In this document: positions 31,644 to 35,672 of the stretch, in pieces
How positions within the stretch are numbered: the stretch's first letter is position 1
How the letters are laid out: the number at the start of each line of letters is the position of its first letter
Origin: a virus
Lineage: Duplodnaviria > Caudoviricetes
Strand: one strand, 5' to 3'
IMG/VR virus record: IMGVR_UViG_2974666281_000001
Location: 32,001 to 96,000 of that record
Length of the DNA stretch: 64,000 bases
The notes under the pieces: generated by a model
Told to the model about the DNA's origin: nothing
Seen by the model: only the letters and a program-made list of their open reading frames with translations
The model's database searches: none
Translations under genes and position numbers: made by a program

Positions 31644-32128
31644 TAGTATGCACCCCAAGTGCCAGTTTTAAAAGTAGAAATAACGCGCTTTGCACGGTTC
31701 GTAGTCTGATTATACCATCGGGATTTAGCTAAGTTAACTGCTGCTTCGTCCCAACGTTTTTCTTTAAGCATACGCATTGAATTAGTGAATCCTGCGACGC
31801 CTGCTACACCCATCTGGAACACCATATTAATCAGTGCTGCTCGACGGATTTCGTCAAGAGAATCGTACACAGGCTTCAGAACGCTGTTGCCTTGAATACC
31901 TTTAACAGCTTTCTCAACATCTTTAGCAAAGATACTTTCAGCTTCATCTTGAGTAATCTGTCCATTACAAGAACGACCAACAAGTTTGTCGAGTTCTGCT
32001 TTAGCTACTGACAGAGAAGGGTTTTTGGTCAAAAGATGACCGATTCCGATAGTCCAATAACCTTCGGTATCTTTATAAATTTTAGAATCGTATCCTTCGT
32101 CGATACGAAGCATTCCAAATATATCCAT
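31643..32128 (-). CDS. e: T4-type lysozyme (endolysin)
   Basis: MLRIDEG...[16 protein letters not shown]...[10 protein letters not shown]. Confidence 0.99.
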
Positions 32129-32874: not shown

Positions 32875-33204
32875 TTACGAGCGAATACCTCGAATAAAAT
32901 CTAGAGCTTCATCTTTTTTAGAGATGACTTTTTCCTTTACTGGTTCTTTATCAAACGTTCCACGTTGATACTGGCTAACAAACATAAGCCATCTTGATAT
33001 AATAAACACTGGGCTTGTTATTGCGGCAGAGATAGCTAAGAACATCAGAGCTCCGCCATAAATTGGACTAAAGAAGAACAAAGTGAAATAAGTGCCAAAT
33101 CCTAAAATTGCTGAGCTCGCTGCAATAACACCGATCAGCAAGAAAATCCAGCCTTCTTCATTGTAAGAAGACTTCTTATACCCACGGTAAATAGTCTTAA
33201 TCAT
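32875..33204 (-). CDS. two-TM membrane protein, e.2-e.4 family
   Basis: Two TM segments; tail DFIRGIRS. Confidence 0.8.
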   Translation of the reverse strand: MIKTIYRGYKKSSYNEEGWIFLLIGVIAASSAILGFGTYFTLFFFSPIYGGALMFLAISAAITSPVFIISRWLMFVSQYQRGTFDKEPVKEKVISKKDEALDFIRGIRS

Positions 33205-33740
33205 TTTCTACATCCTTTAATGAAGTCTGAGATGCTTTTCTGATGTTGATATTTCTTTTCTTTATGCTTCACAAAAGGAGCTTTGACGGCGTACCAAAGA
33301 CAGCCATCCAACCAAGTCGTAAAAATAGAAGCTATCAGACAAGTAAAGTTAATTAAAAGACCACCAAAAATAACTTCAAAAAGATTGCCTTTATCAGAAG
33401 CCAAATACAACCAATAGTTAGCTTGGAAAACCATACCTAAAGTGATAAAACCTACTACTCTATCAATTTTATTTTCTTTAGGCTTTTCAGTTCTTGGCTG
33501 ATAGCCGTTCACAATATAACCCATAGTATTTTCCTCATAAATGAACCCGTGTTCTTCAGCCAATTCCATTTCAGCCTGTTTTCTGCGAAGTTTAGCTTCT
33601 ATTTCAGCTTCAGTCGCAGAACGAACACTAACAAAGCCATATTTTTCTTCGAAGTGTCGAGTTTTTTCACAGCTTGTACAATCACAGTCGTCACTATAAC
33701 CAGGGCGACTTGGGTAGATGTCATGATACTGGACAACCAT
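33201..33740 (-). CDS. two-TM membrane protein, e.2-e.4 family, with fused N-terminal Cys domain (second start at 33524)
   Basis: CDCTSC near N-terminus; internal RBS GAGGAAAATACTATG; tail DFIKGCRK. Confidence 0.75.
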   Translation of the reverse strand: MVVQYHDIYPSRPGYSDDCDCTSCEKTRHFEEKYGFVSVRSATEAEIEAKLRRKQAEMELAEEHGFIYEENTMGYIVNGYQPRTEKPKENKIDRVVGFITLGMVFQANYWLYLASDKGNLFEVIFGGLLINFTCLIASIFTTWLDGCLWYAVKAPFVKHKEKKYQHQKSISDFIKGCRK

Positions 33741-34672
33741 TATTCACCTCGTACAAAAGGCTTAACTAGGTGTTGGTTCTTTTTAAAGCGGTTAATATAA
33801 TCGTTTACGCCAAGCTTTTTATACATCGCTACAACGGTGTGATAGTTTTCCCAGGCATATTCACGGAACCAACCTGAAGTGATTGATGTACACACTTTTT
33901 CAAGTGCAATCATGAAACTATGTTCGGAAGAAACGTTTTTAAAGTCGTTAGGAATCTGAGAACGTTCCAGAGCAAGTACACATGTTTCTTCGTATACACC
34001 AGCGAGCTTAATTTCTTCAGGTAAAGCAAAGAACTTCTCTTTAGAAGTCATTACTTGGCTACCGTCTTTCATGTAGAAAGTATAAGCAGGGCGACCAGTC
34101 AGAGCTACAGCTTCATGAATAGTATCATGGTCATATGTATAGATGTCGTCTTTAAAGAACTTGTCTTTAGACGTATCTAACACAGGATGAGAATAGCTCA
34201 ATGTCTCTTTTTCGCGTTGTTTCATAATCAACTCAAGACGTGAGTCCAGAGTTGCGCCCTTGTTGCGCAGGAAGCGGATGTGTTGCATTGTTTTACGGAA
34301 GAATAGATTATTCTTCTTGAAACGATGTGACATCTTAATCGCCAGACAGATGGCAGGTGAAGCCCAATAGAACCCGGTAAGATTGTCTTTCTTCAAAGAG
34401 TACTCAGCATAATTCAAAAGCATTGCATTCGAATTAGTATTATATCCTTCAGGCACAAGGTATGCTTCAAAATAAGTCTCGCGACCATTATGCATACATT
34501 TGAAAGCACTCACATCAGGAGTTTTGACTTCAACTTCTAAGCCACCCATACGGGACTTGAACTCATCCCAAGAACATTCATCAGCAATGAAGTCCCAGTC
34601 CGAATTTTTAATGTCACGTGATTCGATTAACCCAGCATTGTGGAGGGCTCGTGAACCAATAACTAACATCAT
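33740..34672 (-). CDS. putative nucleotidyltransferase (Pol-beta-like motif)
   Basis: LVIGSRAL...SDWDFI (GS...DxD), IKMSH, YDHDTIHE, EETCVLALER, CTSITSGWFR. Confidence 0.7.
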   Translation of the reverse strand: MMLVIGSRALHNAGLIESRDIKNSDWDFIADECSWDEFKSRMGGLEVEVKTPDVSAFKCMHNGRETYFEAYLVPEGYNTNSNAMLLNYAEYSLKKDNLTGFYWASPAICLAIKMSHRFKKNNLFFRKTMQHIRFLRNKGATLDSRLELIMKQREKETLSYSHPVLDTSKDKFFKDDIYTYDHDTIHEAVALTGRPAYTFYMKDGSQVMTSKEKFFALPEEIKLAGVYEETCVLALERSQIPNDFKNVSSEHSFMIALEKVCTSITSGWFREYAWENYHTVVAMYKKLGVNDYINRFKKNQHLVKPFVRGE

Positions 34673-34706
34673 AATATTTTCCTCATTAGGTTATCCCATT
34701 AGGGTC

Positions 34707-34736
34707 ACTATAACATGACCCTAGGTAGTTGTAAAC
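34707..34736 (-). promoter_or_regulatory. early promoter with stem-loop
   Basis: GTTTACA-N17-TATAGT; inverted repeat TAGGGTCA/TGACCCTA. Confidence 0.9.
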
Positions 34737-34738
34737 AC

Positions 34739-34963
34739 TTAGCAGGAAGATGGTTGCCAAATACTTCCATCGGCTTCTACATTGAATTCACGCCCAGCTT
34801 CTTCGCCGTAGCAAGAACTGTTCAGCCAGTCATCGAAACGCATAGAGCCGTCTGACGTATCGAATTCAAAACCAAAATTATCTTCAGAAGCCAGCTTACT
34901 TACTTTGTTGAACAGAAGAGCGAGTTCTTTAGCAGCCTGTTCTAGTTCGTTATGTTGAGACAT
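34739..34963 (-). CDS. small acidic protein with two WxxSSC motifs
   Basis: Start MSQHNELE with RBS AAGGA; WLNSSC and terminal WQPSSC. Confidence 0.8.
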   Translation of the reverse strand: MSQHNELEQAAKELALLFNKVSKLASEDNFGFEFDTSDGSMRFDDWLNSSCYGEEAGREFNVEADGSIWQPSSC

Positions 34964-35004
34964 TGTATTTCCTTCAGTTACAGTGTTGTTATGTGGGTAA
35001 GCCA

Positions 35005-35298
35005 TTAGCAAGTTTCGCTTGAAGAGACCCAATGGCCACTCAGTGATTTGCCTTCTTCGTCAAATCCATCATTGTAGCTGTAAATGTAGCTAAGCTCATT
35101 TTTTGGAGTACCTTTAGGGTTATATGTACGACCACTACCATAATCGCCCACGCTGAATTCTACACCAAATGCATCAGCAATACTAGTTGCTTCAACATCA
35201 ATAAGACGTTCACCTTCAGAAATCAGAGCTTGAATTGCAGCCGAAGCTTCTTTAGCATTAGTAATTTTGGTATTAGTTACTGGATTTACAAGTTTCAT
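35005..35298 (-). CDS. small acidic protein ending WVSSSETC
   Basis: 97 aa, TAATG-coupled. Confidence 0.8.
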   Translation of the reverse strand: MKLVNPVTNTKITNAKEASAAIQALISEGERLIDVEATSIADAFGVEFSVGDYGSGRTYNPKGTPKNELSYIYSYNDGFDEEGKSLSGHWVSSSETC

Positions 35299-35672
35299 TA
35301 TCTACACTCTTTAATAAAATATTCAATTTCAAGACGAGTCTTTTTATTGATTTCGGCTTGTTCGTTGTCTTTTATAGCCTGACGTTTGGCTTTGTTTCTT
35401 CTTCGTGCTGGCATGAAATATACCAATCCAACTAAATGAGGACCAATATAAGTCAAAAGCATGCCTGCAGGCATAGCGCCAAAAACAATAGGAAGAACAG
35501 TTTTATCAGATAGTTGACCACCAAAAAACATAACATCTATAATGACCATGATGAGCGCAAAGCTCATCATCAAACCTAATCCAATCATCATAGAAAGAAT
35601 AAATTTTAAACCACCATCTTGTTCTGTGTTGAATTTAGTTTTCTCAAAGTCCCAAGAGCGATATCTAGCCAT
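35298..35672 (-). CDS. two-TM membrane protein, e.2-e.4 family
   Basis: Two TM segments; tail EYFIKECR. Confidence 0.8.
   Translation of the reverse strand: MARYRSWDFEKTKFNTEQDGGLKFILSMMIGLGLMMSFALIMVIIDVMFFGGQLSDKTVLPIVFGAMPAGMLLTYIGPHLVGLVYFMPARRRNKAKRQAIKDNEQAEINKKTRLEIEYFIKECR

Follow-up and report, generated by a model that had tools for sequence, protein, structure and literature searches.

A phage locus in which a DUF7277-DUF7275 nucleotidyltransferase is very probably coupled to small acidic proteins with a serine-cysteine tail

Several Pol-beta-fold enzymes act on a protein partner of their own and modify a side-chain hydroxyl in it, among them MntA-HepT (a type VII toxin-antitoxin system), GlnD with PII and GlnE with glutamine synthetase. 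CitX and MdcG attach a nucleotide-derived prosthetic group to a serine of a small acidic carrier protein. In the aminovinyl-cysteine (AviCys) rings of lanthipeptide-type ribosomally synthesized and post-translationally modified peptides (RiPPs), a serine lies three residues before the carboxy-terminal cysteine (S-x-x-C-COOH). MenAT1 of Mycobacterium tuberculosis is a chromosomal toxin-antitoxin locus. Its toxin MenT1 (DUF1814/AbiEii; PDB 8an4/8an5) is a nucleotidyltransferase, and MenA1, a protein of 68 amino acids (aa) with a long central helix, is encoded just upstream and blocks the MenT1 active site (PMC10435456, PMC11375011). Here we describe a locus in a 64,000-nucleotide (nt) window (positions 32,001 to 96,000) of the IMG/VR virus record IMGVR_UViG_2974666281_000001, which comes from a T4-like phage of the genus Winklervirus. 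It encodes a nucleotidyltransferase of 310 aa, called the enzyme below, and two small acidic proteins, A and B, immediately upstream. The enzyme and the small proteins very probably form a functionally coupled, conserved and phage-specific two-part module. We propose that the enzyme nucleotidylates a tail serine of its small partners, a reading to which we give a probability of about 0.4.

The module resembles MenAT1 in that both have a bi-lobed nucleotidyltransferase with a helical lobe and a small helix-rich partner encoded immediately upstream. The phage enzyme differs from MenT1 in having no match to PF08843 in 40 members of its family (E <= 5), in a spacer of 17 residues between the GS and DxD motifs, where 9-13 are usual for Pol-beta nucleotidyltransferases, and in the lack of a conserved phospho-acceptor. 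In MenT toxins the acceptor is a Ser or Thr (MenT1 T39, MenT3 S78; PMC11375011) placed two positions N-terminal to the first catalytic Asp, whereas position 23 of the phage enzyme is N, C, D, V or P in the 40 members. The phage partners are an unrelated family of helix plus sheet, are present in multiple copies and carry a W-x-x-S-S-x-x-C-COOH tail that is absent from MenA1; moreover, the module is found in virulent phages. The small-molecule O-nucleotidylyltransferases ANT(2'')-Ia (PDB 4xje) and LnuA (4wh5) have about 175 aa and no DUF7275-like extension, and they act on antibiotics with no protein partner. For MntA-HepT, GlnD, GlnE and CitX/MdcG, no sequence or profile similarity to the phage proteins was detected; the small proteins have no HEPN, PII or acyl carrier protein features, and the HEPN motif R-x4-6-H is absent from their family alignment. 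RlaP (PF10127) is also a Pol-beta nucleotidyltransferase, and the phage enzyme is sometimes close to Pnkp or RNA ligase genes. However, the enzyme has no PF10127 match, and its linkage to RNA-repair genes is occasional, whereas that to tail-motif proteins is near-universal. The tail shares the S-x-x-C-COOH spacing of AviCys peptides, and serine activation, elimination and cysteine addition would use exactly its invariant residues. In contrast to RiPP loci, the phage neighbourhood contains no dehydratase, cyclase or flavoprotein decarboxylase, and a six-residue form of the tail, W-x-x-S-S-C, misfits the AviCys spacing. A sequence-only reading of this DNA had compared the small proteins to leader-plus-core precursor peptides in an enzyme-substrate cassette. 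This picture found no support: protein A models as a compact fold in which the tail is not free, and the neighbouring genes include no conserved protease, exporter or further tailoring enzyme.

The same reading had named a lack of co-occurrence in other phages, before any search, as part of what would refute it. The enzyme and open reading frames (ORFs) ending in WxxSS(xx)C proved to be linked in both directions across unrelated phages. Well-studied groups (RB69-type, RB49-type, phAPEC8, Otagovirus, Myxococcus phage Mx1 and jumbo phages) have the module, as do other T4-likes and Acinetobacter Lazarusvirus. Proteins A and B both match the last 85 positions, the C-terminal part, of the profile phrog_899. 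Members of phrog_899 lie directly upstream of an enzyme homologue in Pseudomonas phage phiPsa267, E. coli phage WPEC6, Myxococcus phage Mx1 and Acinetobacter phage Berthold, four phages that otherwise have little in common. In the forward direction, 80 IMG/VR loci were fetched with the enzyme alignment and 75 of them have small proteins upstream on the same strand (72 by a profile of 11 small proteins, raised to 75 by BLAST clustering and the tail pattern). The pattern W..[SAT][SAT].{0,2}C-stop was matched by 197 of the 5757 ORFs in these loci, and every one lies upstream of the enzyme on its strand. The same pattern finds only A and B in the 64-kb window and nothing in a 165-kb control phage. 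Chance falls far short of explaining how often the tail motif recurs. Near the enzyme, no gene family other than the small proteins is shared across lineages, the next commonest families being T4-specific neighbours. In the reverse direction, 37 loci were fetched by a small-protein pattern alone, YGMGG[TYS]Y[DYT], which was derived from a sub-alignment of 12 sequences. The enzyme follows within about 1.6 kb downstream in 36, and in the remaining locus the contig ends 350 nt past the small gene.

When the loci were pooled, motif ORFs were found for 44 of 47 enzyme clusters (70% identity). The three clusters that lack them are represented by a 2-kb contig, by a tail with N for the second S, and by a lineage (L071, L073, L074 and L084) with motif ORFs 5-6 kb away on the opposite strand. 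All 281 motif ORFs of the pooled set are co-oriented with the enzyme, and a locus holds one to five of them when the strict pattern is applied, or as many as six by profile. The same gene order was found in metagenome contigs and in five contigs from metagenome-assembled genomes (MAGs). Known but diverged members (L040, L066) escaped the small-protein profile; empty results of that profile were therefore not counted as evidence, and the tail pattern in all frames was used instead; the frameshift-ridden contigs L119 and L120 were left out of the interpretation. The enzyme is present in 727 of 50,697 deposited phage genomes (tblastn). A scan of 185,579 prokaryotic genomes, one per species, gave five matches, all in MAG contigs with the phage-type arrangement, with patterns that reach fairly close relatives only. 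Judged from these sequence searches, the enzyme family appears to be essentially viral. T4 itself has neither the enzyme nor the small family. Its tk.1 protein (62 aa) was tried as a family member and rejected, as it matches only the central part of the profile, weakly and incompletely (E 0.0014), and has no W-S-S-C tail. No paper describing either family was found in the literature, and both are annotated only as hypothetical proteins or domains of unknown function.

The features first noticed in the window, two small acidic ORFs with a Cys-ending motif upstream of the 310-aa protein, are all present on the minus strand. Protein A (isoelectric points, pI, of A and B are 4.2-4.6) carries the tail once at its C-terminus. 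Protein B carries the motif twice, as an internal D-D-W-L-N-S-S-C and at its end (...DDWLNSSCYGEE...IWQPSSC-stop). The start of B is most likely ATG 34963, a choice favoured by the ribosome-binding site GAAGGA that precedes it, by the same form being annotated in Erwinia phage Virsaitis27 and by the length of homologues. An alternative start, ATG 35005, overlaps the stop of A, and a 97-aa form beginning with TTG in the ORF list was rejected as an over-extension. All three genes are under purifying selection in comparison with two Winklervirus relatives. The ratio of nonsynonymous to synonymous substitution rates (dN/dS) is 0.04-0.08 for the enzyme and 0.11-0.15 for A, while gene B has no nonsynonymous and 3-6 synonymous changes. 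Between Winklervirus and E. coli phages the identity is about 44% for A and about 70% for the enzyme, the small proteins evolving faster.

A profile search of 1.84 billion representatives found 1283 clusters of the small family (50% identity, E <= 0.001). The top 150 clusters all have 67-144 aa and their match reaches the final residue. The motif ends the protein in 145 of 149 representative clusters, and 144 of the 149 give the tail logo [ED][ED]-G-G-W-x-[SAP]-S-S-x-x-C, in which W(-8), S(-5) and C(-1) never vary and position -4 is occupied by serine in 143. The median pI of the representatives is 4.4, and the motif cysteine is the only cysteine in 90 of 149. Outside the essentially invariant W, S, S and terminal C of the tail, the sequence diverges freely. 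The sequence-only reading had also noted an N-terminal helix with a shared ending, and a helix followed by A-D-E-x-G-h-x-F is indeed the family consensus. A and B show these features, namely the helix, the A-D-E-x-G-h-x-F strand and the carboxy-terminal G-W-x-x-S-S-(x-x)-C. Two subtypes are kept across T4-likes and phAPEC8-likes: type A is long and has G-D-Y-G-x-G-x-T-Y, and type B has an internal and a terminal six-residue motif. The tail motif is modular, with internal duplication in type B and in other subtypes. The AlphaFold model of A (predicted local distance difference test, pLDDT, 86) has a 30-residue helix packed on a three-stranded sheet. No match for the small proteins was found in Pfam, PADLOC or NCBIfam, an ESM Atlas search with A gave no usable match, and a word-based homologue search with A, too insensitive for this family, gave only three matches. 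No fused or long forms, including enzyme-partner fusions, were found by the profile search and a search for longer forms, which is a weak search. A related subtype has an internal W-[EQ]-[AS]-S-G-[GS]-C-E-W and often ends in ...Y-D-Y-G-W-[ND]-[IVL] in place of the terminal Cys; its members are interleaved with canonical ones upstream of the enzyme (Table 1).

The best explanation of the modelled fold and its residues is that the 310-aa protein is an active nucleotidyltransferase of the Pol-beta superfamily, in the structural group of MenT, AbiEii and ANT(2'') and with a sequence family of its own, DUF7277 plus DUF7275. The GS...DxD, HDxxH and EE residues first read from the sequence are present and invariant among 40 homologues (down to 47% identity), as G6-S7, D25-x-D27, E69, H182-D183, H186 and E228-E229. 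At the level of fold, the superfamily hallmarks were found: hG[GS]...D-x-[DE], a third acidic residue and similarity to solved structures. The AlphaFold model has a pLDDT of 91.7 and places the catalytic residues on strands 2-5, 25-31 and 64-73. The closest solved structure is the MenT1 toxin, with an alignment that covers residues 1-277; fold matches mostly cover residues 1-159 of the model and hardly extend into its C-terminal half. In Pfam, NCBIfam and PADLOC, the three proteins matched only DUF7277 and DUF7275. The 40 members have no link to AbiEii, RlaP, HD or any other Pfam family, and a profile search of PDB sequences with the enzyme alignment gave no match. An HD domain in DUF7275, an idea prompted by H182-D183, was tentatively rejected on the lack of a Pfam match; the fold matches barely reach that half of the protein. 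Language-model look-alikes include AbiEii, DUF6036 and ANT clusters, at the level of leads only. Conserved residues include K113, K127, D131 and K259, which are at most candidates for the conserved Lys and Asp of the C-terminal motifs III and IV that form the site with motifs I/II in MenT/AbiEii toxins.

Of the relations that could underlie this coupling, that of an enzyme and its clients is the most economical, given the linkage, the constant tail on otherwise free-running proteins, the presence of several diverged copies in one phage and the fact that enzymes of this class transfer a nucleoside monophosphate (NMP) to hydroxyls. A motif that is modular and internally duplicated is more readily understood as a recognised site than as an element of structure alone. 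Under our proposal, the small acidic proteins, of which one to six are encoded directly upstream, would be dedicated partners that the enzyme binds. The conserved helix end and first strand (A-D-E-x-G-h-x-F) would act as docking element and the tail as acceptor. An NMP or nucleotide-derived group would be transferred to one of the two invariant serine hydroxyls beside the terminal cysteine, and this modification would convert a fast-evolving set of small proteins to their active form early in infection. If the enzyme does modify its partners, the module would represent a new class of protein modification encoded by phages, and one whose acceptor motif is very clear. A more specific form of the proposal, a new post-translational modification pathway, is improbable in our judgement. 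Here the O-nucleotidylylated serine would either persist as a stable protein-nucleotide conjugate, serving for example to mimic or to trap in the face of host immunity that senses nucleotides or tRNA, or be eliminated to dehydroalanine. The latter would be attacked by the carboxy-terminal cysteine to close a lanthionine- or AviCys-like thioether ring, possibly aided by the conserved His/Asp/Cys261 cluster of DUF7275. If this is true, well over a thousand phage lineages would have a nucleotide-dependent means of producing modified small proteins.

Several observations weigh against the proposal that the small proteins are substrates. In the model of A, the tail Trp is part of the last strand and S-S-E-T-C forms a terminal turn, which does not look like a free acceptor peptide. 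The structures nearest to the enzyme are tRNA-directed toxins with small upstream antitoxins. A CC31/PG7-like T4-type genome of 165.5 kb (G003, locus L032; 97% complete) has an intact enzyme of 305 aa, but none of its frames holds a tail-motif ORF anywhere in the genome, although the closely related L033, L034 and L043 have two such ORFs each; it is a natural "enzyme-only" genome. Distant and shorter relatives of the enzyme occur in Streptomyces phage Limpid (gp203) and Gordonia phage Yvonnetastic (gp16), and a relative without the transferase domain occurs in Vibrio phage phi-ST2_0282; none of the three has a tail-motif partner within 5 kb. Because the Streptomyces and Gordonia phage relatives are without partners in that range, the enzyme probably has, or had, another substrate. 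These three relatives keep K113, H116, H182-D183, H186, E228-E229 and E236-R237. C261, S266, R270, H162, Y160, R153 and R117 are common to partner-associated enzymes of very distant lineages and are replaced in the partner-less actinophage and Vibrio relatives (e.g. Ile at 261; C261, S266, R270 and H162 are not kept in any of the three). The correlation of Cys261 with partners is suggestive, although it is effectively one phylogenetic contrast. Finally, RNA-repair genes (T4-type Rnl1, Pnkp, Rnl2-like ligase) lie within a few kb of the module in several unrelated phages, and in L135 and L136 the end of Pnkp and the beginning of a tail-motif gene overlap at the stop and start codons. Pnkp or Rnl homologues are found in the flanks of only about 20 of 126 loci. 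These neighbours may hint at an RNA substrate, or may merely reflect clustering in the early region.

The strongest rival to an enzyme-client relation, and no less concrete, is an arrangement like that of MenAT1, which we hold to be possible but doubtful. The enzyme would nucleotidylate RNA, most likely the 3' ends of host or phage tRNAs in host shutoff or RNA repair, and the small acidic helical proteins would be its inhibitors or timers, binding it so that the tail plugs or remodels the active site as MenA1 does on MenT1. The fold ranking with MenT1 on top, the matching gene order, the strong acidity of the partners, as expected of a competitor of nucleic acid, and the enzymes without partners in G003 and actinophages all speak for it. 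So do tRNA genes near the module in T4-likes and Yvonnetastic and the Pnkp, Rnl1 or RNA ligase genes in several lineages. On the other hand, the enzyme family is not basic (median pI 6.2), the AbiEii match and the phospho-acceptor of MenT are missing, and it is not obvious why a lytic phage would have to neutralise a toxin directed at its host. Between one and six very diverged paralogues per phage would be unusual for antitoxins and fit multiple clients of one enzyme better. Furthermore, inhibition through a helix needs no strictly invariant terminal Cys and two Ser, and the C-terminus of MenA1 is dispensable (PMC10435456). On either reading, the tail is expected to dock in the active site or close to it. 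If the partners do regulate a tRNA-directed enzyme, the MenAT/AbiE family of toxin-antitoxin and abortive-infection systems would have in this module its first counterpart carried by a phage and serving the phage.

It is unlikely, in our view, that the small proteins are instead interchangeable targeting subunits or obligate structural partners that steer one catalytic subunit, or that the two parts serve one pathway without contact. Tight linkage, variable copy number, fast divergence of the bodies around constant docking elements, and subtypes A and B maintained as if for separate jobs would all be expected of such adaptors. This leaves unexplained why Ser-Ser and a carboxy-terminal Cys are the most conserved feature, and the lack of enzyme-partner fusions, from a weak search, also speaks against it. 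Inherited synteny together with a chance or compositional tail is extremely improbable. The T4-type region concerned is hyperplastic and accessory, with promoter/stem-loop cassettes, as this explanation supposes; however, the linkage persists in phages with no other common neighbours and in both directions, the motif ORFs share one orientation throughout, the tail pattern has no other match in 64 kb plus 165 kb of phage DNA, and all three genes are under purifying selection.

Table 1. Coordinates of the module in the window and of related features in other loci (L numbers are our locus labels)
Feature	Position	Strand	Remarks
Enzyme, 310-aa nucleotidyltransferase	33740..34672	minus	N-terminal Pol-beta-type domain, Pfam DUF7277 (residues 2-89), and helical C-terminal DUF7275 (108-294); phrog_2141
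Early-promoter-like site and 9-bp stem-loop	34700..34735	minus	Promoter scan 10/12 matches; within the 66 nt that separate gene B from the enzyme gene
Small partner B, 74 aa (88 aa from ATG 35005), acidic, type B	34739..34963	minus	phrog_899, E 7e-9; ribosome-binding site GAAGGA
Small partner A, 97 aa, pI 4.6, type A	35005..35298	minus	Long helix, GDYGSGRTY loop, terminal G-H-W-V-S-S-S-E-T-C-stop; phrog_899, E 1e-17
Subtype with W-[EQ]-[AS]-S-G-[GS]-C-E-W	L002 3250-3666 (phiPsa267 gp083); L059 1936-2277; L078 3289-3693; L081 1673-2143; L089 2679-2939		
RNA-repair neighbours	L135 2204-5240; L136 79-1256; L134 2542-5399; L162 3067-5636		
Further loci with RNA-repair neighbours	L056, L058, L079, L100, L101, L105, L106, L121, L123, L126, L129, L131, L050		
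Distant enzyme relatives	L162 4881-5636 (Limpid gp203); L163 4077-4859 (Yvonnetastic gp16); L164 4800-5414 (phi-ST2_0282)		
T4 tk.1 (rejected as family member)	L143 1465-1653		
Small membrane proteins flanking the module	32875-33204; 33201-33740; 35298-35672	minus	

The module sits in a variable region that has the lysozyme/nudE genes on one side and the tRNA genes on the other, and all genes there are on the minus strand. Over the module region, DNA identity is 96% with Erwinia phage Vettismorki and 93-94% with Serratia phage LC53 and Virsaitis27. The spacer before the enzyme gene contains a sigma-70/T4-early-like sequence, TTTACA-17-TATAGT with TG upstream, at 34735-34707, and a stem-loop overlaps it with a folding z of only -1.26. 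Promoter/stem-loop cassettes (PeSL) of T4-type hyperplastic regions mediate the shuffling of modules (Arbiol et al. 2010, PMC2839356), and the spacer sequence resembles them as a candidate element. The sequence-only reading had cautioned that an early promoter separates the enzyme from the small genes. A promoter-like site is present, and the caution is valid but carries little weight: the distance from the last small gene to the enzyme is 2-100 nt in many other phages.

Three small membrane proteins flank the module and have a common tail (...ALDFIRGIRS, ...ISDFIKGCRK and ...IEYFIKECR), and two of the three match phrog_2203. Outside T4-likes they are not part of the nucleotidyltransferase module. 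These tails recur in the CC31-like phage of locus L032.

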